Counted from the first letter of the stretch, positions 479 through 33,776 are shown. The stretch: DNA of 33,776 bases from Anaerolineales bacterium (GCA_015484985.1 WFUL01000173.1:1-33776); one strand, 5' to 3'. Notes: generated by a model not told the origin, from the sequence alone. Program-made: numbers and translations.

Positions 479-1153
479 TCAGCTTAGGCTGAAAGGCCCT
501 TTCAGGCCAAAGTTCCCAAAAATCTTTCCGGCAAAGTCCATCATGATTCGATGGACACGCTCAAGCAGGTTCTGAAGGTCCCGAAAATCACCACTTTTCA
601 GAGCCTTTTCCAAGTCCCGGTAGAACGCCTGTTCTATATCCTGGTGTCCTTTGCCGAAGTAAAGCACCCGGGACCGATATATGGCATCGGCCAACATCCA
701 GGCGATATTCTCTACAGCCAGTCGCTTTTCTACTGGAACCTTATCGGGCGGCAACACCATCGCGGTCAAGTAAGCGAAAATCGAACCATGCATCAGGTTC
801 CAGAAGTGCTCCGGGCCTCCTCCCGCATGCCGGACGCCCTGGGCATACTTCAGGGTCGTACGCAATACAGGCGAAATGGCTCCGGCCCAGGGCATCCCAA
901 ACACATGTGCCATCTCCGCAACCATGCGCTCGATAACAAATTGCGCCAGCGGTTCAGGAACGTATTCCCTGGCCTGTTGGTCCAGGTCGTCTCGCATATG
1001 CACGGCGATGAACAACACCATCGCGTAGAAATCAGTCATATAGTCCACCACGCGAACGGACACCGCAGGCCGCTCATTCCCTTCCTTCAGGAAACGCTCC
1101 AGGTCTTCCTGAAGGACGCGCAAAAATTCGAGAAAAGATTCCCGATGTCCCAT
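479..1153 (-). CDS. hypothetical protein (224 aa, predicted helical), member of the MoxR-VWA operon
   Basis: Internal ATG at 1153 is preceded by AGGAGGTGTGTC. The track's longer N-terminal extension (to 1318) overlaps the upstream gene and reads as low-complexity junk. No motif recognised. Confidence 0.75.
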   Translation of the reverse strand: MGHRESFLEFLRVLQEDLERFLKEGNERPAVSVRVVDYMTDFYAMVLFIAVHMRDDLDQQAREYVPEPLAQFVIERMVAEMAHVFGMPWAGAISPVLRTTLKYAQGVRHAGGGPEHFWNLMHGSIFAYLTAMVLPPDKVPVEKRLAVENIAWMLADAIYRSRVLYFGKGHQDIEQAFYRDLEKALKSGDFRDLQNLLERVHRIMMDFAGKIFGNFGLKGPFSLS

Positions 1154-1163
1154 GACACACCTC

Positions 1164-1913
1164 CTAACGTCGAGATTGCAGTTCCGCTTCCAGGGCTTCC
1201 AGGACTTCGTACAGGGGTGGCTGAGTCTGGGAGAACACGATGTAGTCGGGATGCGCAGCCACACCGCCCAGGGCTTCCAGTTTCTCCCGGACCTTCTCCG
1301 GGACGGGACGCCCACCACGCCGGGCTACCACCACAACCCGAAACTCCGGCGCGCCGATATACCAGTCGTAGCCACGGCGCGCAAACATCTCGTTCATCAT
1401 GTTGCGCGCCACGGTCACAATGGCAACCGACTCCCCGTCCGCCGTCCGGGCAACCATCGGGGCATAGGCCAGAAGTTCCTTCCTGGCCCAGTCCAGGCGC
1501 TTCATTAGGGCCGGAAACCGGTCCCGGAGCCAGCGCACAAACCGCTTGGTCTGCCAGTCCTGGGCGGGCACGCCCAGGGCCATGTCCAGCACCTGGAACA
1601 GTTCGGATTCCTCGCCCGGTTCCAGGATGTCCCGCAGGCCCCAGACGGCCCACTTCAGGCTTCCCCAACCGAAACGGTCCTTGCTGGTTCCGCCCCGGGC
1701 TGCCTCGGACAGGTACAGAACCAGCACGCGCATCTTCGCAATTTCCTGCATCACCGTGAAATTCATCTGGTCCGCAGCCAGAGCCAGGTTCAGGCCCTGG
1801 TGAATAGCGGCCCAAGTCTCATCCCCATCCCACTCTTCCCGCAGGACGGGCAGCGGGATAGGTTTCTGGGCCAGGTACTCATACACAAGTCGGGGAATGC
1901 TTTTTGTAATCAT
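1164..1913 (-). CDS. hypothetical protein (249 aa), member of the MoxR-VWA operon
   Basis: ATG after GAAGGAGGAGAGTC. ATGA overlap with the upstream gene's stop (1910-1913). No motif recognised. Confidence 0.8.
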   Translation of the reverse strand: MITKSIPRLVYEYLAQKPIPLPVLREEWDGDETWAAIHQGLNLALAADQMNFTVMQEIAKMRVLVLYLSEAARGGTSKDRFGWGSLKWAVWGLRDILEPGEESELFQVLDMALGVPAQDWQTKRFVRWLRDRFPALMKRLDWARKELLAYAPMVARTADGESVAIVTVARNMMNEMFARRGYDWYIGAPEFRVVVVARRGGRPVPEKVREKLEALGGVAAHPDYIVFSQTQPPLYEVLEALEAELQSRR

Positions 1914-2662
1914 GACTCTCCTCCTTCGTCGGAAGTCTCGGGTTGTGTTGTACTGCTTGTTATCTGAAATCGTAGATTTATGGTCGTAACTGTGGAATTC
2001 GAAAGTGGCGGTTTTTCAGGCACGGAAAAGCCCGGCACCGAAACGGCAGGGTTCGGCAGGGCATCATCGGGGTTGGTGGTCAGCACCAGGCACAGGTCAA
2101 AGTCCATGTCAAAAGTAATGCACACCGCCCCGCCAAAATTCTTCGGGTCCAGCAAAAACCCGGATTTCGGCGAACCACGGTCGCCAAGCCACCATCGGGC
2201 AACCAGGGTGCGGATGGAAACCACGGGCACCCTCTGTTTCCACACCAAAGCCTCTGTGTTCCAGGTTACCCGGGCCGTGCGCCAGATGTTTCCTTCTTCC
2301 AGGTCCCAATCGGTGTACCGCCAGCGGGGGCGAACCTTGATAGCCGGGACCTCAACCAGACGATGGTCCTGGTCCCGCATCTTCAGAACCGTCGTGCCCA
2401 GAAGGAACGTCATCATGATGGCCCGGGCCTGGGCCAGGTCGGTCTGGTCATGCTTCCAGCGCACGAAAGGCTGAAGGAACACCGGATAGGTATGAACCGC
2501 GAGCACGCCTGGGACGTAGCGGACCACGCCATTGCGCTCGGTCACCAGTTCGCCCAGAACGCCGGCCTCTCGGACGTAGAGGTGCATCAGCGCCGGAGCA
2601 AACCGGGCCATCTCATGGCTGTTTTTCACGAATTCGTAGACCTCCCGCATGACGTCCTGCAT
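1910..2662 (-). CDS. hypothetical protein (250 aa), member of the MoxR-VWA operon
   Basis: Start MQDVMREV at 2662 is preceded by GGAGGAGTGAG and lies 1 nt after the VWA stop codon. No motif recognised. Confidence 0.8.
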   Translation of the reverse strand: MQDVMREVYEFVKNSHEMARFAPALMHLYVREAGVLGELVTERNGVVRYVPGVLAVHTYPVFLQPFVRWKHDQTDLAQARAIMMTFLLGTTVLKMRDQDHRLVEVPAIKVRPRWRYTDWDLEEGNIWRTARVTWNTEALVWKQRVPVVSIRTLVARWWLGDRGSPKSGFLLDPKNFGGAVCITFDMDFDLCLVLTTNPDDALPNPAVSVPGFSVPEKPPLSNSTVTTINLRFQITSSTTQPETSDEGGES

Positions 2663-2663
2663 C

Positions 2664-4202
2664 TCACTCCTCCATAACCTCATCGAAGACTCGGGCCACC
2701 AAGGGCACGGCCTGTTCCACGAAAGCCTTTGGCTCGGCCACGGTCAGGGCCATGCCCCGGACGCCCGGGACCTGAGAGAAGTACTCCACCACCTCCTCGG
2801 CACCGTGCCCAATACCAAGAAAGGCAAAACGCACGCCCTGGACCGCCAGTTCTGCCACCTTCGTGAGTGCTTCCTCGGCATCGTAAAAATCCATGTCGGT
2901 GATGACCACCACGTCAGCGGCCCGAAATTCGCTCTCCTCCAACAGGTCCTGTACCTGCCACAGGCCCCGCAAGAATCGTGTCCCACCGCCCTCCCAGGCC
3001 GCCACAGCCCGGGCCATATCCTGGGGGGCTTCAATGACCTGTCTCCAGGCCGACCCTGAAAAACCCACATACGCCACGGGCCGGCCTTCCTCGTGGACAG
3101 CCTGGGCCAAAGCGTAGAACAGGGCCTTGGCGTGAATGCGCAAACCATCCATCGAACCGGACTCATCCAGGACGAAAATCACCGGCCCATCGGCCTTCCC
3201 AGGGGCCATGTCCAGGCCGAGGGTCTGGCGCTGCTGCAAGCGCCGAATTTGCTCGGCCCGGACCACGGCCGGAACCTGGGGAGCCAGGCGGACCAATTCA
3301 AAAGGAAGAAGGGCCAGCACATTGTCCGTACCCTGGACACGGCCCCGGATGCCCCGGTTGTCCAGGCCCTGCATAGCCTGATTTAGCCGGGACCGCAGGG
3401 CACGACCCAGGCGCACGATGTCCAGGGCCTGCATGTCACCCAGGACGCGTAGCAGGTTCAGGTCCCAGGTCCGCTCTTGGACCTCGGTCCCCGCCCCAGG
3501 CATAGCCTGCTCCATATCCTTTGCCGCGCCCTCGCCCTGGGCGACGCTCTGGATTTCCCACTCAATCTGCTTGCCCTGTTCTTGCATCATCTGAGCCATC
3601 GCCTGGGCCATTGCCTGGGCCATTGCCTGGGCCAGGTCTTGACCTTGTCCCTGCCCCTGTCCCTGGCCTTGCTGGCCGCCATTGTCTCCATCATCCCCAC
3701 CACCTTCACCAGGCGGCTCTTCACGGAACAGGTACTGTGCCAGGCCCTGGGCGACCCTTTCCCAGGCTGCCGCGGACCGGTACAGGCTGTAACGTGTGGA
3801 CCGAACCAGACGCATGAGGTCCCGGTACTGGTCCGGGTACTGTTCCTTCAGAAGGCCCAGGGCTTCCCGAATGCGGGAAACACCGGGACCGGAAGGGTCG
3901 CCGCCCAAAATGCCTATCATCATGGACGGCCCGGAAATCAGAGAAGTCAGGCCGCCCCCGCCCGACACCTTTTCCGAGTCATCCGGGCGGAGACGACCCT
4001 CGAAGAAGAGCCAGTACAGGTCCCCCAGGGCTCCCTCGATGGCCGGGACCTGGGAGACCTTCTCGTCCGGGACCTCGGTCCGCACCTGTTCCCGCACCCC
4101 CAGGGCGCGCAACAGCATGGCGTGCCGCGCATCCCCGGGGATGCGGACCTGGGTCTCACGGCGAATATGTGCCGGGTTCAGGTTCAGAATAACCTCGCTC
4201 AT
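2664..4202 (-). CDS. von Willebrand factor A (VWA) domain protein, ViaA/CoxE/CobT-like
   Basis: C-terminal VWA fold with MIDAS motif DESGS (VIFVLDESGSMDG ... GGGTRF ... VVVITDMDF). An LLPFELVRL...RRLQQRQ segment sits upstream, as in ViaA/CoxE-type proteins. Central low-complexity (GQ)n/(AQAM)n linker. ATGA overlap with the MoxR gene. Confidence 0.9.
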   Translation of the reverse strand: MSEVILNLNPAHIRRETQVRIPGDARHAMLLRALGVREQVRTEVPDEKVSQVPAIEGALGDLYWLFFEGRLRPDDSEKVSGGGGLTSLISGPSMMIGILGGDPSGPGVSRIREALGLLKEQYPDQYRDLMRLVRSTRYSLYRSAAAWERVAQGLAQYLFREEPPGEGGGDDGDNGGQQGQGQGQGQGQDLAQAMAQAMAQAMAQMMQEQGKQIEWEIQSVAQGEGAAKDMEQAMPGAGTEVQERTWDLNLLRVLGDMQALDIVRLGRALRSRLNQAMQGLDNRGIRGRVQGTDNVLALLPFELVRLAPQVPAVVRAEQIRRLQQRQTLGLDMAPGKADGPVIFVLDESGSMDGLRIHAKALFYALAQAVHEEGRPVAYVGFSGSAWRQVIEAPQDMARAVAAWEGGGTRFLRGLWQVQDLLEESEFRAADVVVITDMDFYDAEEALTKVAELAVQGVRFAFLGIGHGAEEVVEYFSQVPGVRGMALTVAEPKAFVEQAVPLVARVFDEVMEE

Positions 4203-5443
4203 TCCTCATCCTCCTCGGTTTCCTGGAAATACTCAGGCATGACCTCCCGCACCCAGTCAGGCACCAGGGCCTGCCATCCGGTACCGCGCAAGGCCGCTCC
4301 CAAAACGTCCTGCAAGGTCTTCATCTCTTCCTTCCATTCCTGAGTCGCGGCCACTCCCGCGGCCTGAGCGTCTTTCTCGACGTTCTTGGCGGCCTCGATG
4401 ACGGCCTGTAAAGCCATGACATTCATTTGTTCCTGGCCCTGGGCCTCATCCAGGAATTGCCGCCAGACTGCTTCCAACAGACCTCGAACCTTTGTCCGGG
4501 CACCCCCGCCCAGGGGTTGCGCAAACAAGTCAGCAATGACTGCCCGAATGTCAGCCGAGGGCGCGGGCAGGGTCAGAGGCAACAGGCCAACCCAGACATC
4601 CGCCACGGCCCCAGGGATGTTGTGGTTGTTGGCCCGCACCAGAAAAGCCACCCCAGACACCAGGAGCCGCGCCCATTGGCGCTCAAGCCGAGGCGTCAAA
4701 CGCTCCCGGATGGTCGCCAGGGCGTTTTGGACCTGCTGTTCACCCATACCCCCCAAACCCAGAAGGGCTACCACCTGGTCATCAGGCATCGCCAGCAGGT
4801 CCAGGAACCGGGCCAGGATGCCCGTGGCCTCCTGGACAGCCTGGGCCTTTTCTTCATCCGAGGGGCCGCTTTCGAACAGTTCCCAGGCCACGGGAGCCAT
4901 ATCTGCCACGTGCTGACGCACCGCACCAATGACCGGGTCGCTCTGCCCGGCCAGGGCATGCGCCCGAAAAATATCGAGTAGATGCTTTTTCTCTGGGTCG
5001 GTCTTCCACTCAATCCAGACCGCAAACCGGCTTGCCAGAGCCTCGAACCGTTGGCCGCGGGGCCACCAGTTCGCGGTGGCAACCGTGACCATATGGCGAC
5101 CCTGGGGCGGGTCCAAGACGGGCAAGAGCGCATCCAAAGCGGCCTCGTTAGCGCGGCTGATTTCATCAAAGAGCCAAGCGGAAATTTGCTGGTCGTGAGG
5201 TGTGCCAACGCGGCTGATGACCAACCGCCCGGACTGCAAGTATTCGGCCACGTCCACGGCCCCACTTACCACCTCGGGCGGCGTGTTTGGGGCGAATTCA
5301 ATCACCCCAAAGCCACCTTCACCAAAGACCTCGGCCAACACCGCCCAGGTGGTCTTGGTTTTGCCCCATCCGGGCGGACCCACAAGCAGGACATGCTCAC
5401 GGGCGGAAATGGCGATAAGCAGGGACTCAATTCGACTTAGCAT
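4199..5443 (-). CDS. MoxR-type AAA+ ATPase
   Basis: Walker A LLVGPPGWGKTK. MoxR-style Walker B WLFDEISRANEAALDALLPVLD. Sensor-1 TVATAN. LASRF Arg. Start MLSRIESLL at 5443 follows AGGAGGTGCATC. Confidence 0.9.
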   Translation of the reverse strand: MLSRIESLLIAISAREHVLLVGPPGWGKTKTTWAVLAEVFGEGGFGVIEFAPNTPPEVVSGAVDVAEYLQSGRLVISRVGTPHDQQISAWLFDEISRANEAALDALLPVLDPPQGRHMVTVATANWWPRGQRFEALASRFAVWIEWKTDPEKKHLLDIFRAHALAGQSDPVIGAVRQHVADMAPVAWELFESGPSDEEKAQAVQEATGILARFLDLLAMPDDQVVALLGLGGMGEQQVQNALATIRERLTPRLERQWARLLVSGVAFLVRANNHNIPGAVADVWVGLLPLTLPAPSADIRAVIADLFAQPLGGGARTKVRGLLEAVWRQFLDEAQGQEQMNVMALQAVIEAAKNVEKDAQAAGVAATQEWKEEMKTLQDVLGAALRGTGWQALVPDWVREVMPEYFQETEEDEE

Positions 5444-5471
5444 GATGCACCTCCTCATTTGATATTCCAAA

Positions 5472-5515
5472 GCCCCGGGCCGGAGTCGAACCGGCCCAAA
5501 CGCTACCCGCGGGGC
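5472..5515 (-). ncRNA. tRNA 'top-half' minihelix-like element (acceptor-like stem plus T-arm, no D or anticodon arm)
   Basis: Minus strand reads GCCCCGC-GGGTAGCGTTTGG-GCCGG-TTCGACT-CCGGC-CCGGGGC-t. It has a 5-bp T-stem, a 7-nt TTCGACT loop and a contiguous 3' acceptor strand pairing (6 of 7) with the 5' end. It starts at the G of the upstream TAG stop. Confidence 0.4.
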
Positions 5516-6141
5516 TACTTCGAAGCAATCAGGGCCTCAATCGCGGTTTTCACAGTCTCCAGTTGCTCCAGGTCCATATCCTGGAGCAGTTGCAACACCG
5601 CGGCCACCTTCGGGTCCACTTCGGTATCGCCACCATTGGCCCGGGCCTGGAGTTCGGCCTTACGCCGCTCCAGTTCGGCCAGGGCCTGTCGGTACACCTT
5701 CTTGGCAGCGGCCAGGATATCCGCCACAGCCTCATCGGGGACCCGATGCTTCTGGGGCAGGTAACCCATCCAGCGGAGATGCCCGGGATGGACCCTCACC
5801 CAGGCATCTGCGATACGAAGTACCGCACTATCGCGCCGGATGGCGCAACCAGTGCGAAAATCTTTCACGAGACGCTTCTTGGCCTCGTAGGTGTCGGGAT
5901 GTTTCCTGCTTCCCCCGATACCGTTGGGAAAGGTGATGTCCAGCATCACCTCCCCGTCCTTTTCATAGGCCACAACCCAAATGGGCATCTCGATGATGGT
6001 TGGCTCCTCATGAGCCAGAGCGGAAGGCTTCTCTTGGCGGGCAACCCAACCAGTAAATTCGACGGCCAGGACTTCATGGTCCTGGTCTAATTCGGGCATC
6101 TCACTTCGCTCAATTCGGAAATACTCCGTTCGGCCAATCAT
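5515..6141 (-). CDS. hypothetical protein (208 aa), first gene after promoter P4
   Basis: ATG at 6141 (MIGRTEYF) follows GAGGAGTGAGAGCG. An alternative ATG lies at 6159. C-terminal coiled-coil-like region. No motif recognised. Confidence 0.75.
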   Translation of the reverse strand: MIGRTEYFRIERSEMPELDQDHEVLAVEFTGWVARQEKPSALAHEEPTIIEMPIWVVAYEKDGEVMLDITFPNGIGGSRKHPDTYEAKKRLVKDFRTGCAIRRDSAVLRIADAWVRVHPGHLRWMGYLPQKHRVPDEAVADILAAAKKVYRQALAELERRKAELQARANGGDTEVDPKVAAVLQLLQDMDLEQLETVKTAIEALIASK

Positions 6142-6177
6142 CGCTCTCACTCCTCTCATTTGGGATTTTCACCCCCT

Positions 6178-6205
6178 ATTATACAGAGACTGTCCGGCTT
6201 GTCAA
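6178..6205 (-). promoter_or_regulatory. consensus sigma70-type promoter P4
   Basis: Minus strand: AAAACCCC TTGACA (16 nt) TATAAT AGGGGGTGA. Same cassette as P1-P3. Confidence 0.8.
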
Positions 6206-6222
6206 GGGGTTTTTACGAAAAA

Positions 6223-6243
6223 GGGCCGGGAAAATCCCGGCCC
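6223..6243. terminator. bidirectional intrinsic terminator
   Basis: GGGCCGGGA-aaa-TCCCGGCCC is flanked by an A-run and a T-run on both strands. The stem sequence is the same as at 33331-33352. Confidence 0.8.
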
Positions 6244-6261
6244 TTTTTGTTAAAAAAACTA

Positions 6262-6570
6262 TCAACGTAAGCGCCCAACGGCCCGCAGGGCCTCCTCGAT
6301 GGTGTGCACCACAACAACCTTCCCGGCAAGGTGCCAAGACTTCCAGGTTTCGAAAAATCGACGCTCAGCCTCGGTAAAACGCTCCCGGCCTGGCGTCTTC
6401 AGTTCCAACAGGAAAATCTCTGGCATATCGGTATAGCGATTCCATCCGCCCACCACCAGGTCCGGGAACCCGTTTCCCACACCCGACGCAACGAACACCG
6501 GACATCCAGCCTGGCGCAAAGCATGAACAATGTCACGCTGAACCGTATCTATCTTTCCGGCCCGTCGCAT
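6262..6570 (-). CDS. VRR-NUC domain nuclease
   Basis: PD-(D/E)xK signature GFPDLVV ... LLELKTPG. About 100 aa. SD GGAGGTGAGCC. Confidence 0.8.
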   Translation of the reverse strand: MRRAGKIDTVQRDIVHALRQAGCPVFVASGVGNGFPDLVVGGWNRYTDMPEIFLLELKTPGRERFTEAERRFFETWKSWHLAGKVVVVHTIEEALRAVGRLR

Positions 6571-6868
6571 GGCTCACCTCCTGCAATCCTCGTCTTGAAG
6601 CCCACTCTGGCGGTGCGAATAGCCAGAGTTGCCCAGGCCGATACCTGGCCTGGAGACTGAGATGACATCGCTGACATAACGCCACCAAGTTCTCATAAGC
6701 ACAATTGGCAGGATTGCCATCCAGATGATGAACGGTCAAAGTGTGCCCCGTGGCCGGGTCATGTGGATGACCGCAATGCTCACATTTCCACCCGGCCCGC
6801 TCTTTCACCTGCCGGGCAATTGCATCCCAATCGTCTGGGTATCTTTCCCGTTTCCACGGCATCGTCAT
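6533..6868 (-). CDS. HNH endonuclease
   Basis: CEHCGHPHD...LTVHHLDGNPANCAYENLVALCQRCH (HNH with CxxC...CxxC). Confidence 0.9.
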   Translation of the reverse strand: MTMPWKRERYPDDWDAIARQVKERAGWKCEHCGHPHDPATGHTLTVHHLDGNPANCAYENLVALCQRCHLSLQARYRPGQLWLFAPPEWASRRGLQEVSHATGRKDRYGSA

Positions 6869-24491: not shown

Positions 24492-26726
24492 TTACGGTCG
24501 CACGCCCAGGATGACGTGGAAGGCTTCGGGGTAGCGCAGGAAGAAGCCGACCCGCATCACGGCCTTGATTTGCATCGTGTCGTTCTCGAAGGTCCCGGCC
24601 CCCTCCGTGGTGGCTTCGAGGCGGATGGTGCGACGCTGTACGATGACCGCCTCGGGCATCCGACCCAAATAGATTTCGGAGCAATCGGTGCTGATGCCCA
24701 CGGTCAGGTTGATGGGAATTTGCGTGGTTTCATAGACCGGAATGCCCCAGATGGTGGGCGGCAGGCCAGGCTCTTTCGGGTCAGCCCAAATATACTGCCC
24801 GTTGGAATCCTTGAGTTTCCGCAGCGTGTTCTTGGTGCGCGGATGGATGATGAACACCCGCCGGTCCTGCGGCACGTTCGCGGCGTCGAGTTGGTACAGG
24901 ACGTCGGCCAGGTCGTCGAAGGTCGGGGTCGCACCGTCCGCGCCCAGAGTCGTGGTCCCAACACCGGTCGTGTTCAGGATGCCGGTGATGGGCACGGTCG
25001 TACCATCACCGCGCAGGTAGGCAATATCCTCTGCCAGGGCCAACCGGGTCGCGATGTCTTGGCGCACGATGGCCTCTACAGAGGGATTGCTGTCCTCGAC
25101 CAGTTCCCGGCTCATCTCTACCCGGGCCGCCAGTTTCTTCACGCTCCAGGCCACCTGGCCGAAGGTCGGCTGGCTCGCGGTGATAGCGCTTGCCTCACCG
25201 ACCCAGTATGCGGTAGCCCCAGCGGTAACTTTCGGGAAGGTCCCGCTGTTCGTGTTCACGTTGATGACCGTGGCCCCGGCCCGACGCACCACAGCCTGGG
25301 CGTTCAGAAGTTCGATAATTTGCGTGCCATGCTCGGGCGGGACCAGGTAGCCACCCGCGGTGTCGGTGCCCTCCACCAGGGCCTTGTACGCCTTATCGAA
25401 GGTGGGTTTGTCGAGCGCGATGACAACGGATTTTGCCTGGCCGTTCGCCATCGCCAGGATAGCCTGGCTCAAGGGATACTCACCGCCCAGCACGAACCGG
25501 GACTTACCGTTGGTCTGGTACACGTTCTTGCGCACAAACGCACCGGGTTCGGTGATGGGAGCCTGGTCCAGAAAAGCCTTGACCACTTCGGTGGCAACCT
25601 GCTTGGCAACCTCGGCCACCAGTTCGGGGTCCACAGTGGGCGCAGGCTGCGCCTTGGGTTCGGGCTGAGGTTCGGGCTTGGTTTCAGCCTTGGTAGCAGT
25701 AGGTTCAGGTTCGGGTTGCTGCTGAGTCTGGTTGCGGATTTTTTCGTCCATCTTCATCCCTCCATGTTGAGATTGGGCTTCCCCGGTCTCCGCCTTGGCC
25801 TTCGCCTCATTAGCCTTCGCCTCAGCCTTTTCGACCGGTTCCGCGATGGCCCAGGGATTCGCGGGCCGTCGCCACTCGTTCACGTCCAGGAGCGCCAGTT
25901 CGGCCACGGGCCACACCGTAAGGTGCGCCCGGTTCCCCTGTTCCGAACGCACCAGATGGGCCACCGCACCGCTACTGGCTTTCACGTCTGCGGCCTCGAT
26001 GATGCGCTGGGCCAGGGGTTCATTCGGGTCCAGACGTACCCGGAACCAATGGCCCTTGGCGTCCGCCCCTTCGTACTTCGCCACGCCAATGACCACAGGC
26101 GGGTTCTGTAATTCCCAGGGCGCGTCTACACCGAAACCGTGGTTGTAGGTCACCGGGACCTCTTGTCCAGGAAGCAGCCAGATATCCGTCTTCGGGGAGA
26201 AGTACTCGCCATGCAGGTCCTTACCATCATACGGCCCGCCAAAAGGTACGCCCAGAACCAGGTACTCCGGCCCGGTCAGGTCCTCCCAGGTTTTCACGCT
26301 TTTGGCCGCCGGGCGTGGTGCCAGGATGCTCTTCAAGTAGTCTTCCGGAAGCATGACCTTCAAGCGCATCCCTTTGGCCTCGCCCCGCATCCGGCGGAAA
26401 TAGGCGTCCAAGACCTTACGCGCCCGTTCCAGCACGTCCGCTGGTGCATCGGCTTGAGGAAGCCGAGATGCCGCCGCCCGAAGGCCGGACGGGATGGCTT
26501 TCAGTTGCCCGTCTATCACGTCAGCAAAGGGCAATTTGTACGCACCCTTGTTCTCCGGGTTCTCCGCGTCATAAATCAGGAAGGCTCGGCGAGCTTTGGA
26601 GGGCTGTGGATTGTTAGGCCATCCGGCCCAGGCAAAAATCCGGTTTCGAGCCGCATCGCCATCCCAGGATCGGTCGGCTTGGGCGATGGGAAGGCCTCGG
26701 TCCGCTCCTACGGTCCACTTCGCCAT
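24492..26726 (-). CDS. fusion polyprotein: N-domain, prohead protease, scaffold-like linker and HK97-fold major capsid protein
   Basis: Protease-like LVLGVPFGGPYDGKDLHGEYFSPKTD. E/K/A/P-rich linker. C-terminal capsid motifs GGYLVPPEH...VINVNTNSGTFPKV...YWVGE...ARVEMSRELVEDS... Confidence 0.9.
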   Translation of the reverse strand: MAKWTVGADRGLPIAQADRSWDGDAARNRIFAWAGWPNNPQPSKARRAFLIYDAENPENKGAYKLPFADVIDGQLKAIPSGLRAAASRLPQADAPADVLERARKVLDAYFRRMRGEAKGMRLKVMLPEDYLKSILAPRPAAKSVKTWEDLTGPEYLVLGVPFGGPYDGKDLHGEYFSPKTDIWLLPGQEVPVTYNHGFGVDAPWELQNPPVVIGVAKYEGADAKGHWFRVRLDPNEPLAQRIIEAADVKASSGAVAHLVRSEQGNRAHLTVWPVAELALLDVNEWRRPANPWAIAEPVEKAEAKANEAKAKAETGEAQSQHGGMKMDEKIRNQTQQQPEPEPTATKAETKPEPQPEPKAQPAPTVDPELVAEVAKQVATEVVKAFLDQAPITEPGAFVRKNVYQTNGKSRFVLGGEYPLSQAILAMANGQAKSVVIALDKPTFDKAYKALVEGTDTAGGYLVPPEHGTQIIELLNAQAVVRRAGATVINVNTNSGTFPKVTAGATAYWVGEASAITASQPTFGQVAWSVKKLAARVEMSRELVEDSNPSVEAIVRQDIATRLALAEDIAYLRGDGTTVPITGILNTTGVGTTTLGADGATPTFDDLADVLYQLDAANVPQDRRVFIIHPRTKNTLRKLKDSNGQYIWADPKEPGLPPTIWGIPVYETTQIPINLTVGISTDCSEIYLGRMPEAVIVQRRTIRLEATTEGAGTFENDTMQIKAVMRVGFFLRYPEAFHVILGVRP

Positions 26727-27086: not shown

Positions 27087-27557
27087 CTACCCGATTCGAA
27101 GTACCCGCGCAAGAGCCACACGAACAATTGTTTGCAAACGTTCTTTCACCCAAGAACGGGCCACCTTCTCCTCGGTGTGCCAGCCACGCCGCCCGTGAAA
27201 ACCCGCCTGCTCGGTGCTCCCCACCACGAAAGGCGCGTAGGTGACACCCGTCCACACCCGGCCCACAGGTCCCTGTGCGCGAGCGTGCCAGGACTTCTGT
27301 AGTTGCTCAGACGTATTTCGGCCTCTGAGCTCGCCCTTCTTCGTCATCCACCTTGGCCCCCAGAGGCGCTGGTGCCAGCGGGAGCCCGGCCCGGCAGGCC
27401 GGTTCCAGGGACCTTCCGGCGGATAAACGGCCATGCGCTCCATAATCTCCGGCGTTGCCTGTTTCACAATGTCCCGGAGAACCTGGCGCAGGCCAGGCCC
27501 GGAGATGGACAACAGCAAACGCCTGGCTCTATCAAGATGTTTGACTTCCACCTCCAT
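27087..27557 (-). CDS. virion morphogenesis protein (HK97 gp10-like?)
   Basis: 156 aa. ...VTYAPFVVG... is reminiscent of gp10-family proteins. Function uncertain. Confidence 0.5.
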   Translation of the reverse strand: MEVEVKHLDRARRLLLSISGPGLRQVLRDIVKQATPEIMERMAVYPPEGPWNRPAGPGSRWHQRLWGPRWMTKKGELRGRNTSEQLQKSWHARAQGPVGRVWTGVTYAPFVVGSTEQAGFHGRRGWHTEEKVARSWVKERLQTIVRVALARVLRIG

Positions 27558-29646
27558 CTTTCTGCCTCCGCGTCAGTTCCACGGCCACACGGCACCGGCA
27601 GCGGGGATGCGCAGGCGGCCCTTCAGGGTATCCCGCGGCCTGCCAGGCCCCGCTCTCCCTGGTGGTATGGTCCAGGGGTCGGCACACCGGGCAGACTCTT
27701 TCGTCTTCTGCGGTCAGCCATCGGCGCACCGTGCGGATGCCCTGCTTTGCCAGGTTGTTCTGCAGGAACCTTGCTACCGCGCTGTGCGCACGGGTCACCT
27801 CGGTAATGGCCGTCAGTTCCGCGTGCACCGGTCCATAGCGCAGGGCCAGGCGTCGCAGAAATTCCTGTTCGTCCCATCCGGTAACCAGCAAGTCACTAAT
27901 GACCGTTTCCACGGTGCGCTTCGTGTTTTCCATGATGCGCTTCGCCCAGTCGGTGATGACGTCCCGGCTCCAACGGTTCAGGTCCTGGACGATTTCGTCC
28001 CATAGCAGACCCAGGGGCGTATCCTGCATCCAGTCCCGGGCCGCCTGAAGCATGTAATCTACCAGGACCTCGGTCATAGCCTGATTCAGCGCCTGGGCGA
28101 AGTCTTCCCAGTACGACTCGGGGACGTTTGTCAAATGCGGCGGGCTACCCAAGAGGTCCCGCAACTTCTGGAACCACTCGAATTCCAGGCGGCCCAGTTT
28201 TCGGGCCAGGCGTCGCTCGAAAGGGTCCGGGTCCAAGGCCTTCGCCATCTCCTGGATGCCCGCCCTGGTCATGGTGAAAACCGTCTTTACCTGGGCTGCA
28301 TCCTGACAGGCTTCCAGCGCACCGCGCACAGCCTCCATGAGCACCGGCCCCAGGGCCTCGCTTTCGAAGGTCACGTCCGCCGGGGCCTTGCCCGCCTTCA
28401 CCCGCTTGAGTACTTTCCGCTCCCAGCGGTCCAGGTCTTCCAGAGTCGCCCTGGGGTCGGCAAGGTGCGCGTGTTTTTTGTTGTCGCCAACAAAAGTCCG
28501 GGTCGGAGTCGGGCCGATACGTACCAGGTTCCCGGCCTCGTCCACGTCCCAACCCTCGGGAAGTTCGTAGCCCAGAACCTGAAGGGCCAAACCCAGAGGC
28601 ATCCCGGCCCGGGTCAGGGCCACCAGCGCGCCCGCCCGCCGGTTCTCGTCTTCCTGATACATGTCCATCTCTTCCGGCGCGAAGCGCAGGTCCAGGCCGA
28701 GGGGGTTCAGCACCTGGCGGTTCAGTTCGGCCTCAAACAGGGCCAGGCGCGGCAGGATGGTTTCATCATAGAACGATTTACGATGCTCCCGGGCCGTGGC
28801 ATAGTTCGCCGCGTCCTCCAGCAGAGTTTGCGGGATGCCGAAGGCCAGAGCCACATCCCGCCGGGCCTGCTCGTGCAGGTCCGGGATGACCAGGTTCCGT
28901 AGTTCAGGTTGAAACGTCTTGGCCTCCAGCGTCCCAGACCGCACGGCCAGCACCCGCCAGGCCCGGCGCACGCCCTGGGTCAGCCTGCGGAACCAGTTTT
29001 CCACTCGCTGGCGCTCTGGCTCGGGCGTGTTCGTCGGTACAACGATGGTGGTCACGGGCATACCGCCGCTCTCAAAATACGTCGCCGCGTACTCGGTGAG
29101 CGCCCACAAAAGCCGGATGTCCCCCAGGGCCACCTGCGCTGCCGATGGGCCAGGGTCATAGTCACTCTCTGGGTTCGGCTCGAACATGTGGAACACCTGT
29201 TCAGGTTGCCACGGGCCATATGTGCGCCCGTCCACGTGTTGCTCCAGGACATACCGCTTCCGCCAGTCCTCGGTTTCCAGTACCCGGACTTCCATCGTAT
29301 CGGGATGCAGGCGCTGAAAGGTCTCTATCCGGCCCGAACGCATCTGGATTTTCAGCCAATACGTCGCGCCGAAAATAAGCATGTCGAATTCCGCCTGCCA
29401 CAGCAGGCGTTCCAAGGGTACATCCGGCCAGGGCCAGTCCACCTCGTTTCCCCGCCGGTCGTGTAGATGCCAGGGCACCCGCACCAGGCCGTTACAGCGC
29501 AGCATCACGGCCCGGAACACCAGCGGCACCAGGCCGTATGCCTGTTCCGGCTTCTTCAGCCAGTCCGGGTCCTCCCGCTGCCATACGCCCGGCCGGATGT
29601 ACAGCAGCCGAGAGCCATCGGGCAGTTGCACCGCTTTCACCGCCAT
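27532..29646 (-). CDS. portal protein fused to a MuF/SPP1-gp7-like minor head domain
   Basis: Start MAVKAVQL follows GAGGAGGGGAGGCA. Portal-like N-terminal about 400 aa. C-terminus has VCPVCRPL...PPAHPRCRCRV (MuF signature). Confidence 0.85.
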   Translation of the reverse strand: MAVKAVQLPDGSRLLYIRPGVWQREDPDWLKKPEQAYGLVPLVFRAVMLRCNGLVRVPWHLHDRRGNEVDWPWPDVPLERLLWQAEFDMLIFGATYWLKIQMRSGRIETFQRLHPDTMEVRVLETEDWRKRYVLEQHVDGRTYGPWQPEQVFHMFEPNPESDYDPGPSAAQVALGDIRLLWALTEYAATYFESGGMPVTTIVVPTNTPEPERQRVENWFRRLTQGVRRAWRVLAVRSGTLEAKTFQPELRNLVIPDLHEQARRDVALAFGIPQTLLEDAANYATAREHRKSFYDETILPRLALFEAELNRQVLNPLGLDLRFAPEEMDMYQEDENRRAGALVALTRAGMPLGLALQVLGYELPEGWDVDEAGNLVRIGPTPTRTFVGDNKKHAHLADPRATLEDLDRWERKVLKRVKAGKAPADVTFESEALGPVLMEAVRGALEACQDAAQVKTVFTMTRAGIQEMAKALDPDPFERRLARKLGRLEFEWFQKLRDLLGSPPHLTNVPESYWEDFAQALNQAMTEVLVDYMLQAARDWMQDTPLGLLWDEIVQDLNRWSRDVITDWAKRIMENTKRTVETVISDLLVTGWDEQEFLRRLALRYGPVHAELTAITEVTRAHSAVARFLQNNLAKQGIRTVRRWLTAEDERVCPVCRPLDHTTRESGAWQAAGYPEGPPAHPRCRCRVAVELTRRQKDGGGSQTS
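28474..28495. repeat. AT-rich palindrome TTTTTTGTTG-tcgc-CAACAAAA (copy 3 of 4), inside the portal ORF
   Basis: It encodes ...TFVGDNKKHA... The core matches the three intergenic copies. Confidence 0.7.
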
Positions 29647-29662
29647 TGCCTCCCCTCCTCGC

Positions 29663-30895
29663 CTAAATCTCGAAAAGTACCTCAAGCCCGGGCTCGGCCA
29701 CCACGTGCCAGGCCAGGGCCAGGGCCATCACCGTATCGTCATGCAGGCCCTCAGGCGCACCGTACCGAATTCGGCCCGAAGGCATGGTCTCACCCTGGTA
29801 TGCCTGTAACTCGGCGATAAGTACGTCGTCCGGCAAGATACGGATTTCCCGGTTCTCAAAGGCCAGGGCCAGGGCGTCTATCACGTTCTGCTTCGTGACC
29901 TGGGTCGTGGTGAAAGGCACCACGGGATACCCTTCCCGTTGCAGGCTCTCAATCAGCGGAAGGCCCATCGCGTTCGCCTCGGCCACGATGGTATGGGGCC
30001 GGAAGCGCCGGTACAGGGCCTTCAGCCGGTTCACCTGGACCGCATACTCGATGCCCGTGAACCGGTCCAGGTATACCAGGGCTTTCAGGGTCACATCCAG
30101 CACGGCGATGACCGTATAGTCGTGTACCCGGCCCCAGTCCACGCCGAACACGTACTCATGCCCCGGCACGGCCTCATCTTGCGGCTCCGCCGTGGCACAT
30201 TCCACCACGTGCCGGAAGACCTGGCCTGCATCGTCCAGAATCTCGGCCAGGAATTCCTGGCGGAAAATCCGGTCAGGAAGCCGCTCCCTCAGTTCGTCAA
30301 TTTTCGCGTGGTCTATATGCGGGTTCTCGTAGGATGTGGCGTGAATCTGAAGCCAGGCCGGGTCCTCGCCCGCCTGTACCCATTCCCGCCAGGCCCAGTT
30401 TTTCCCTTTCGGCACACCCAGCATGGCAACCCATCCGCCGAAGTCTGTCAGGGTCGGCGCGACGTACTCCGTCCACACCCGTTCCCGCATCAGGGAAAAT
30501 TCATCCAGCACCACGCCCCGGATACCCTCGCCCGCCAAACTGTCCTCATTCTCCGCCGTACGGAACCACAGTTCCAGCAGGCCCGGGATGACGATTTCGC
30601 TCTTGGCCTCCCGGATATGCCCGTGCTCGGGAAGGTCCAGGGCGCGCAAGATGCCCCGGGCGATGGTCTTCGCTTCACGCCAGGCCCGTTTCATCGAGGC
30701 ACTACGCCAGGACAGACCAACCCACCAGTACAGGCCGGGCTTTCGGGCCGCGTGATAGAAAATGCGTTGTATCCCCGCCATCGTCTTTCCCCAACGGCGG
30801 CCCGTAAAGGCCACCACCGAACCCGGCCAGGTCACCAGGGCCTTCTGTTTCTCACTATGTGGCTTCTTCATTGGAATGACGACTGTCTTCATCAT
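29663..30895 (-). CDS. terL: terminase large subunit
   Basis: Walker A FTGRRWGKTMAG. Walker B VVLDEFS. C-terminal nuclease-like DWGRVHDYT...HDD. Confidence 0.9.
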   Translation of the reverse strand: MMKTVVIPMKKPHSEKQKALVTWPGSVVAFTGRRWGKTMAGIQRIFYHAARKPGLYWWVGLSWRSASMKRAWREAKTIARGILRALDLPEHGHIREAKSEIVIPGLLELWFRTAENEDSLAGEGIRGVVLDEFSLMRERVWTEYVAPTLTDFGGWVAMLGVPKGKNWAWREWVQAGEDPAWLQIHATSYENPHIDHAKIDELRERLPDRIFRQEFLAEILDDAGQVFRHVVECATAEPQDEAVPGHEYVFGVDWGRVHDYTVIAVLDVTLKALVYLDRFTGIEYAVQVNRLKALYRRFRPHTIVAEANAMGLPLIESLQREGYPVVPFTTTQVTKQNVIDALALAFENREIRILPDDVLIAELQAYQGETMPSGRIRYGAPEGLHDDTVMALALAWHVVAEPGLEVLFEI

Positions 30896-33306: not shown

Positions 33307-33330
33307 TTTTTTGTTGCGAACAACAAAAAA
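33307..33330. repeat. AT-rich palindrome TTTTTTGTTG-cgaa-CAACAAAAAA (copy 4 of 4)
   Basis: Lies 15 nt upstream of the P1 -35, the same spacing as at P2. Confidence 0.8.
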
Positions 33331-33352
33331 GGGCCGGGAACATTCCCGGCCC
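33331..33352 (-). terminator. intrinsic terminator
   Basis: Minus strand: GGGCCGGGA-atgt-TCCCGGCCC followed by TTTTTTGTTG. Confidence 0.8.
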
Positions 33353-33373
33353 TTCTTGGACAGGTCCCAACTT

Positions 33374-33776
33374 CTACGCCTCAGCCTCTTCCTGCGATTC
33401 CTTTGGAGTCAGTTCTTGTACCGCCCGGTCGTAAACCAATTGGAATTGCTCCTGAACCTCCGGCGGAACCAGGCCGCTTTCCTCGTCATAAAGCACGTCC
33501 AGCAGGGCTTTCAGGGAGTGGTCCCGCAGGCCCTTCAGGCTCTCCTTGCCGTAAAGCCACCAGGTCACAATGTGACGGGCTTCCACGGCCATTGGCCCAC
33601 CACCAAACACGCCCTCGATGGCCTGGGCCACCAGGCCAATAGCCCCGGCCCGGTTCTGGAACCGGAAGCCTTCCCGATAATACCGGACCGCCAGGGTGCG
33701 CATATACTCCCGGAATTTCTCAGGGTCCAATGGGAGCAACTTGCGCAGGTCCTGGGCGTCCAAGGCTTGCTGTACC
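33374..33776 (-). CDS. hypothetical protein, possibly 5'-truncated by the window edge
   Basis: The track start at 33763 is a TTG. The frame stays open to the window end. The C-terminus is acidic. No motif recognised. Confidence 0.6.
   Translation of the reverse strand, partial: VQQALDAQDLRKLLPLDPEKFREYMRTLAVRYYREGFRFQNRAGAIGLVAQAIEGVFGGGPMAVEARHIVTWWLYGKESLKGLRDHSLKALLDVLYDEESGLVPPEVQEQFQLVYDRAVQELTPKESQEEAEA

Follow-up and report, generated by a model that had tools for sequence, protein, structure and literature searches.

The 33,776-nt stretch of DNA analysed here (the window; Anaerolineales bacterium, GCA_015484985.1 WFUL01000173.1:1-33776) carries a seven-gene operon that encodes a MoxR-type AAA+ ATPase, a VWA-domain partner, a RecT-like protein and four orphan proteins, termed g1, g4, g5 and g6. 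We read this operon, with moderate confidence, as a single phage transcription unit running from terminator to terminator, in which a MoxR–VWA remodelling pair and RecT form the core, the client of the pair belongs to replication or recombination, and the four orphans are lineage-specific. None of the rival explanations weighed below is favoured over it. The pair represents a very divergent new member of the known phage MoxR–VWA gene pairs, and the operon gives no support for a new multi-protein system.

All genes of the window lie on the minus strand. The operon begins at a sigma-70-type promoter (TTGACA-N16-TATAAT, 6205-6178) that matches the consensus at 12 of 12 positions; the first-pass annotation called it consensus promoter P4. 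Seven genes follow in the order g1-MoxR-VWA-g4-g5-g6-RecT, up to an intrinsic terminator after the RecT stop codon (~33356-33321). The preceding unit, which ends with a VRR-NUC nuclease gene, is closed by a near-identical terminator consisting of an A-tract, a GC stem and a U-tract (~6248-6216), so that the operon is flanked by two near-identical terminator–promoter cassettes. The predicted RNA fold of the upstream terminator (6216-6248) has an energy of −25.5 kcal/mol (z −5.28; 0 of 200 shuffles equally stable) and that of the downstream one (33321-33356) −28.9 kcal/mol (z −5.52), with the next consensus promoter at 33292-33265.

The first gene, g1 (5515-6141), encodes a soluble orphan of 208 aa and is preceded by the ribosome-binding site GAGAGGAG. 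It is followed by the MoxR gene (4199-5443, 414 aa), which overlaps the gene of the VWA partner (2664-4202, 512 aa) by an ATGA. A 1-nt gap separates the latter from g4 (1910-2662, 250 aa; ribosome-binding site GGAGGAG), which shares a second ATGA overlap with g5 (1164-1913, 249 aa). Gaps of 10 nt and 12 nt lead to g6 (479-1153, 224 aa; ribosome-binding site AGGAGG) and from g6 to RecT. Each of the seven genes has a GGAGG-type ribosome-binding site and a coding signature rich in G and C at third codon positions. The junctions thus agree with the ATGA overlaps, short gaps and GGAGG sites described previously, except that g1 and MoxR are separated by a 71-nt spacer (5444-5514), the sole non-tight junction of the operon, rather than by 1-12 nt. 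This spacer contains a hairpin, GGGCCGG-TTCGACT-CCGGCCC (5476-5496), that resembles a tRNA T-arm. A tRNA-like element was rejected: there is no tRNA or Rfam match, and the spacer folds no better than shuffled sequences (z 0.52).

The window is a complete phage genome, circularly permuted and cut inside the RecT gene, because the copy of the same genome in ENA (L001) joins both window ends through a full RecT. Owing to the permutation, the N-terminal 155 codons of RecT lie at 1-466 and the C-terminal 134 codons at the opposite end (33374-33776); the gene therefore starts at 466 and lies outside the interval 479-6205, to which it had been assigned. L001 and a Logan contig both contain the full 348-aa RecT followed by the genes of the window's right end. 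The gap between the window ends is 178 nt (mapping to L001 11913-12091), which gives a circle of ~33,954 bp; the 34,009 bp of L001 correspond to this circle plus a 55-nt assembly overlap. The genome is that of a small siphovirus of ~34 kb with a typical layout.

Profile searches support the assignment of the ATPase to the MoxR class. The best-scoring Pfam model is bpMoxR (PF20030; 39.6 bits against a cutoff of 27, E 3.7e-10), which is matched by 29 of 31 clade members, and AAA_5 also scores above its cutoff (PF07728; 32.1 bits against 22, E 1.4e-7). Walker A (GPPGWGKT) occupies residues 22-29 (window 5380-5357) and Walker B (LFDEISRA) residues 91-98 (window 5173-5150). Across the 31 aligned clade members, G25, G27, K28, D93, E94, R97, N125, R139 and R252 are invariant, and the Walker A, Walker B, sensor-1 and arginine positions of the window's MoxR are all intact in this alignment. 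Judged by these motifs, the ATPase is predicted to be catalytically intact. When the clade profile was compared with PDB sequences, the best match and thus the best solved relative was RavA (1.1e-15), with Midasin, Cytophaga MoxR (2R44) and McrB also listed. No AAA lid model of Pfam matches the window's MoxR, and relatives in two of the contexts described below (L006 and L007) carry AAA_lid_8. The C-terminal tail of the protein is acidic (ETEEDEE).

Relatives of this ATPase are few. When 1.84 billion representative proteins were searched exhaustively with HMMER, 257 were found at E ≤ 1e-3, with the best non-self match at 4.9e-23 and 37% identity; the top matches constitute a family of ~370 aa that aligns end to end. 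A word-indexed search of 5.8 billion proteins returned MoxR itself only, tblastn gave no match in 50,697 phage records, and a hand-made motif for the clade found nothing in IMG/VR. The MoxR–VWA clade is small and confined to phages and plasmid-like elements.

The VWA assignment is supported as well. The protein scores 34.7 bits with Pfam VWA_CoxE (cutoff 26.4, E 1.6e-8), and ViaA and CoxE models are its best profile matches. It consists of an N-terminal helical region, a low-complexity linker of the type (GQ)n/(AQAM)n and a C-terminal VWA domain, in which the motif DESGS (residues 346-350; window 3167-3153) is accompanied by GGGT and ITD. The MIDAS (metal-ion-dependent adhesion site) is complete, with D346, S348, S350, T408 and D436 invariant in seven relatives that have the same ~500-aa architecture. 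The linker reads (GQ)6 followed by (AQAM)4 (residues ~172-215; window 3560-3690) and is shorter in a relative. In the profile search of the 5.8 billion proteins, the linker swamped the result, leaving four distant matches and missing the query itself. A pattern scan based on the VWA alignment gave nothing in GTDB genomes or IMG/VR, and among the 50,697 phage records the region has no close relative at the DNA or protein level, with weak matches to VWA only. Two orthology assignments were rejected. The ViaA equivalog PRK10997 reaches 38 bits against a cutoff of 500; for CobT or a cobaltochelatase, CobT_C reaches 18.3 bits against 21 and TIGR02442 17.6 against 779, which also speaks against membership in the CobS/CobT-like phage pairs mentioned in the first-pass annotation.

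MoxR–VWA pairs have been documented in replication or accessory regions of tailed phages and archaeal viruses, with no function assigned to them (PMC2147016, PMC7911831, PMC7824862). Examples are orf66/orf63 of Bacillus phage 0305phi8-36, HrrHc1_240/245 of the haloarchaeal siphovirus Hardycor1, p618/p892 of Acidianus two-tailed virus (ATV) and the pairs of group 2.2 jumbo phages. The earlier statement that the arrangement maps to no described system was therefore overstated. As in those viruses, the AAA+ (MoxR) and VWA/MIDAS genes described here are co-oriented and adjoining, in what is usually the replication or accessory region. In the Moorella phage MTATph1, the VWA protein of the pair CDS0115/0114 aligns over the full architecture at 27-32% identity. 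The pair differs from those of deposited phages by a very low sequence identity and from other viral pairs by sharing one operon with RecT and four orphans; neither the tail role of the ATV pair nor the metallopeptidase domain of the jumbo-phage VWA proteins is seen here. With the cellular pairs RavA–ViaA, CbbQ–CbbO, NorQ–NorD and CoxD–CoxE, it has in common the intact MoxR motifs and a C-terminal VWA domain with a complete MIDAS. Unlike them, it sits in a mobile element and lacks a nearby gene for a client enzyme (Rubisco, NOR, CODH or Frd/Nuo), and it is an orthologue of none of them.

By analogy with RavA–ViaA, CbbQ–CbbO and ATV p618/p892, whose mechanisms are summarized in PMC7159879, PMC7911831 and PMC7824862, the pair most likely acts as a chaperone. 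The host RNA polymerase would read the unit from one of four consensus sigma-70-type promoters in the genome. The MIDAS of the VWA protein would then capture a client protein by an acidic residue or tail, and the MoxR ring would remodel, assemble or release this client with ATP. Acidic C-terminal tails are present in MoxR, VWA, g4 and RecT, and such tails are plausible MIDAS ligands. The four orphans would be fast-evolving, lineage-specific accessories encoded on the same transcript, and may include clients or modulators of the pair.

The neighbourhoods of related pairs point to the nature of the client. We took in the wider MoxR clade contexts L003, L006, L007, L072/73, L074, L075, L076/77, L078, L079 and L080, all of which look phage- or plasmid-like. 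In eight of the nine other assessable contexts, a VWA gene (~340-510 aa) lies 3′ of MoxR, either directly or after a few small genes. The 347-aa protein downstream of MoxR in L080 is not recognizably a VWA protein, and the contig of L079 ends at the MoxR gene. Nothing similar to g1, g4, g5 or g6 was found at the related MoxR–VWA loci examined. Of the six families, only MoxR and VWA recur together in these contexts.

The recognizable neighbours in these contexts are mostly genes of DNA metabolism, including an SMC-like ATPase and helicases. L072/L073 encode an initiator, DnaB, DdrB and the beta subunit of DNA polymerase III. The Alicyclobacillus element L006 encodes the polymerase III beta subunit, a DnaG zinc ribbon, the SMC-like ATPase and a helicase, and in L007 a gene for a single-stranded DNA-binding protein (SSB) lies between the MoxR and VWA genes. 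Neighbouring genes encode ribonucleotide reductase and a Holliday-junction resolvase in Moorella phage MTATph1, a DnaG zinc ribbon in L080, and RadC, ParA and an antirepressor in both L078 and L079. Because the pair recurs among DnaB, primase-like, SSB, DdrB, beta-clamp, ParA, RadC and RecT genes in unrelated elements, its most probable client is, in our view, a protein or nucleoprotein complex that serves DNA replication or recombination in the phage or its host. Among the three roles offered in the first-pass annotation, recombination or replication remodelling is therefore the one that gains support from gene neighbourhoods; host takeover and anti-defence gain none. Phage MoxR–VWA pairs have been noted for almost twenty years, and in tailed phages no function has yet been assigned to them. 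A clade restricted to mobile elements and found mostly near replication, recombination and partition genes narrows the search for a client, for which a compact 34-kb genome is a suitable test system.

Several observations weigh against this reading. Phage early regions are rich in DNA-metabolism genes anyway, which makes the neighbourhood argument weak, and it is from such neighbourhoods and from analogy that the link between the pair and DNA metabolism would follow. The L074, L075 and L076 contexts show no recognizable replication gene. In L076 (580-5015), the closest relative of the window's MoxR (37%) and a 336-aa VWA protein follow a Ro60/TROVE-vWA RNA-binding protein, which hints that some clade members may act on ribonucleoproteins rather than on proteins of DNA metabolism. 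The operon directly precedes the packaging and structural unit, a position that would also fit a chaperone of virion assembly. The non-conservation of the orphans is based on a single relative and thus on thin sampling; in that relative g5 adjoins VWA and has an invariant Trp-rich motif, and at least one orphan could be a true partner.

RecT, at the end of the operon, has the full N-terminal domain of its family (Pfam PF03837; 34.7 bits against a cutoff of 24), which 17 of 21 relatives match too, and it is matched by the RecT-like PHROG at 1.5e-12, in agreement with its first description. An additional C-terminal domain of ~125 aa (33374-33776; L001 12120-12494) has its sole conserved counterpart in L005, a 3,850-bp contig from a metagenome-assembled genome, and follows the motif line …YRxGFxFxNRxGAIGL…GGG…AVE…GKxSLKxLxDHxLKA…. 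None of 62 RecT relatives from IMG/VR aligns past residue ~230, and no MoxR, VWA, g1, g4, g5 or g6 is found near RecT at these 62 loci. The extra domain may serve to bind a partner.

As in RecET/Red-type modules, the RecT-family protein ends an operon adjacent to replication and recombination genes, and g6 occupies the position where the exonuclease partner of RecT usually sits. It differs from them by the extra domain of RecT and by the lack of a recognizable exonuclease: Pfam and PHROG scans recognized no such partner anywhere in the genome. This raises the question of whether the orphans are ordinary recombination or replication proteins that have diverged past recognition, such as an exonuclease to partner RecT, a Gam-like inhibitor or an SSB, in a standard module to which MoxR and VWA are added. 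The position of g6, the SSB gene between MoxR and VWA in L007 and the acidic, disordered-looking C-terminus of g4 (…TSDEGGES), which is reminiscent of SSB tips, agree with such an origin. Yet no SSB, nuclease or Gam family appears even at E 0.1, and g4, g5 and g6 match no nuclease family. The only recognized nucleases (VRR-NUC and HNH) lie upstream of the operon promoter. The AlphaFold2 model of g6, made from a single sequence, is all-helical with nine helices, unlike known exonuclease folds, at a low confidence (predicted local distance difference test score (pLDDT) 47) that makes it too poor for use. That of g5, made from a two-sequence alignment, is helical in its N-terminal half, with a small alpha/beta portion towards the C-terminus, and is likewise too poor for use (pLDDT 53.9). 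The fold comparison that had been suggested, run with Foldseek against the PDB, gave no match for this poor g5 model (best E 0.89). Both models are unusable because the proteins have so few homologues. Overall, an origin of the orphans as diverged standard proteins appears doubtful.

The four orphans were described as unrecognizable, and this description stands: g1, g4, g5 and g6 match nothing in Pfam, PHROGs, NCBIfam, PADLOC, PDB sequences or the 50,697 phage genomes. Among 15 billion proteins, g1, g5 and g6 are singleton clusters, and the exact sequence of g4, queried with a 257-aa start, is absent from this collection. All four are soluble and near-neutral to mildly acidic. Paralogy among them was rejected by BLASTP and hhalign. 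Going by their sequences, they appear to behave like ordinary phage orphan genes.

A homologue was found for g5 alone, in the word-indexed search of the 5.8 billion proteins (P0006, encoded on L005; 43% identity), with the conserved core RFGWGSLKWAVWGLRD. The g5 motif WGSLKWAVWG gave nothing in IMG/VR or GTDB; in JGI metagenomes it gave one chance match and one spacer of clustered regularly interspaced short palindromic repeats (CRISPR). This spacer, in the metagenome contig L070 (Ga0256833_1089920, 792-828), corresponds to the conserved Trp-rich core of g5, with 29 of 31 positions identical in the window (1637-1667) and 32 of 34 in L005. The array on L070 has at least 19 repeats of GTTCCGAGCCTACCTATGAGGGATTGAAAC. 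The spacer is a pointer to the host and demonstrates the existence of a third relative. An in-frame TAG (1751-1753) interrupts the g5 homologue of L005 midway through a well-conserved stretch (NMGS*MLGR); a sequencing error, recoding or a nonsense mutation in a decaying prophage could account for it.

L005 is the only relative of the module that was found. It encodes VWA (50% identity to the window's protein), directly followed by the g5 homologue, a 255-aa helical protein and RecT (38% identity). The gene g4 is absent, and the 255-aa protein was rejected as a g6 homologue, as BLASTP and hhalign detect no similarity to g6 or g4. Since L005 lacks g4 and has an unrelated protein at the g6 position, g4 is dispensable in this lineage and the g6 slot is variable. 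The order kept between the window and L005 comprises VWA, g5 and RecT only; it is expected for two related phages and alone is no proof of a functional link. At ten loci of terminase relatives (40-49% identity) the module is missing. Because phages with a related terminase lack the whole module, the operon represents a mosaic accessory cassette.

These comparisons bear on the proposal that the four orphans are dedicated partners in a stoichiometric complex, in which all seven (or six) products would form one co-translated machine, with the orphans as subunits or adaptors of MoxR–VWA acting together with RecT. One promoter and one terminator serve all genes, ATGA overlaps join MoxR to VWA and g4 to g5, most other gaps measure 1-12 nt, and VWA, g5 and RecT keep their order in L005. 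In L072, VWA is followed by six unknown proteins and then by the annealing protein DdrB. However, the L072 proteins have no similarity to g1 or g4-g6, no orphan recurs near the other MoxR–VWA pairs examined, g4 is missing and g6 replaced in L005, and g1 lies 71 nt from MoxR. Moreover, gene overlaps or gaps of less than ~16 nt are the rule across the whole genome (gene table of L001), and the tight packing is therefore nothing specific to the MoxR operon. We consider such a machine very unlikely, and g1, g4, g5 and g6, as judged by their distribution, are probably not conserved obligatory subunits of MoxR–VWA.

A narrower variant would make the mobile-element-restricted clade a dedicated remodeller of replication or recombination, with g5 and possibly other orphans as adaptors to RecT. 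Such a remodeller would load, recycle or strip an annealing protein, an SSB or a beta clamp by capturing acidic tails at the MIDAS. We regard this variant as quite unlikely; if true, it would define a functional class new to MoxR–VWA chaperones and an accessory layer new to phage recombination.

The match to bpMoxR and the adjoining VWA partner also recall the MoxR-vWA-beta-propeller/VMAP conflict systems (Kaur et al. 2020, PMC7159879). Unlike these ternary systems, the operon contains no WD40, beta-propeller, VMAP, FtsH-like or effector component (Pfam E ≤ 0.1), and it is phage-encoded rather than located on the chromosome of a multicellular bacterium. The likeness brings in the possibility that the operon is a host-takeover or anti-defence module, in which MoxR–VWA would dismantle a defence or housekeeping complex of the host and the orphans would be anti-defence proteins. 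Anti-defence proteins are typically fast-evolving and without homologues. The orphans turn over fast between relatives, the highest-scoring Pfam model describes the MoxR found in NTP-dependent conflict systems, and a host CRISPR spacer targets g5; the spacer indicates no more than exposure of the region to host immunity. No known anti-defence family is matched, though, and the beta-propeller, VMAP or effector component of ternary conflict systems is missing. PADLOC gives P-loop noise only, with weak matches to MoxR (E 0.002-0.05) and nothing for the remaining six products of the operon. We therefore consider a role in host takeover or anti-defence unlikely.

The interpretation of the operon as a remodelling unit with a DNA-metabolism client also has to be set against its position in the genome. 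The distance from the operon end to the promoter of the packaging and structural unit is 82 nt. The designation of the operon promoter as 'early' is not established, as the packaging and structural genes, too, are preceded by a promoter of this consensus type. If the pair were expressed just before the structural genes, it might be a chaperone of virion assembly, like p618/p892 of ATV or as proposed for the pair of group 2.2 jumbo phages. For this there is a precedent in the literature (PMC7824862), and in the passages of PMC7911831 and PMC7159879 that cite Scheele et al. 2011, the ATV pair acts in tail development. On the other hand, none of the remaining clade contexts examined has structural genes beside the pair, the pair is missing from phages whose terminase and portal genes are related, and the Alicyclobacillus and ParA-bearing contexts look like plasmids or integrative and conjugative elements and not virion-forming. 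A role in virion assembly thus appears distinctly unlikely.

Beyond the operon terminator, in the 3′ direction, lie a consensus promoter, a ParB-like gene, a DNA methylase gene, a candidate gene for a helix-turn-helix protein or small terminase, and TerL. TerL is followed by a portal-MuF fusion, an HK97-type capsid protein, the tape measure, Dit, tail proteins and an endolysin. On its upstream side the operon is preceded by genes for an O-like replication initiator and a DnaC-like loader, by those for small and membrane proteins, and by those for an HNH endonuclease and the VRR-NUC nuclease. A consensus scan of the window for perfect TTGACA-N16/17-TATAAT sites found four, all on the minus strand (33292-33265, 14397-14370, 12935-12907 and 6205-6178), with none expected in 100 shuffles. 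The whole genome, structural genes included, seems to be transcribed from such host-type consensus promoters. Three of the four have a common extended context, CCCCTTGACAA…TGCGTATAATAG or a close variant.

Just upstream of the operon promoter, the HNH gene (6533-6868), which was missed by the ENA gene caller, overlaps the VRR-NUC gene (6262-6570) by 38 nt. It is located ~7 kb from the terminase around the circle and does not adjoin it. Two structural genes are unusually long: that at 27532-29685 encodes the 717-aa portal-MuF fusion, and that at 24492-26726 a product of 744 aa that contains a capsid domain of the HK97 type and may be a fusion of a protease or scaffold with the capsid protein.

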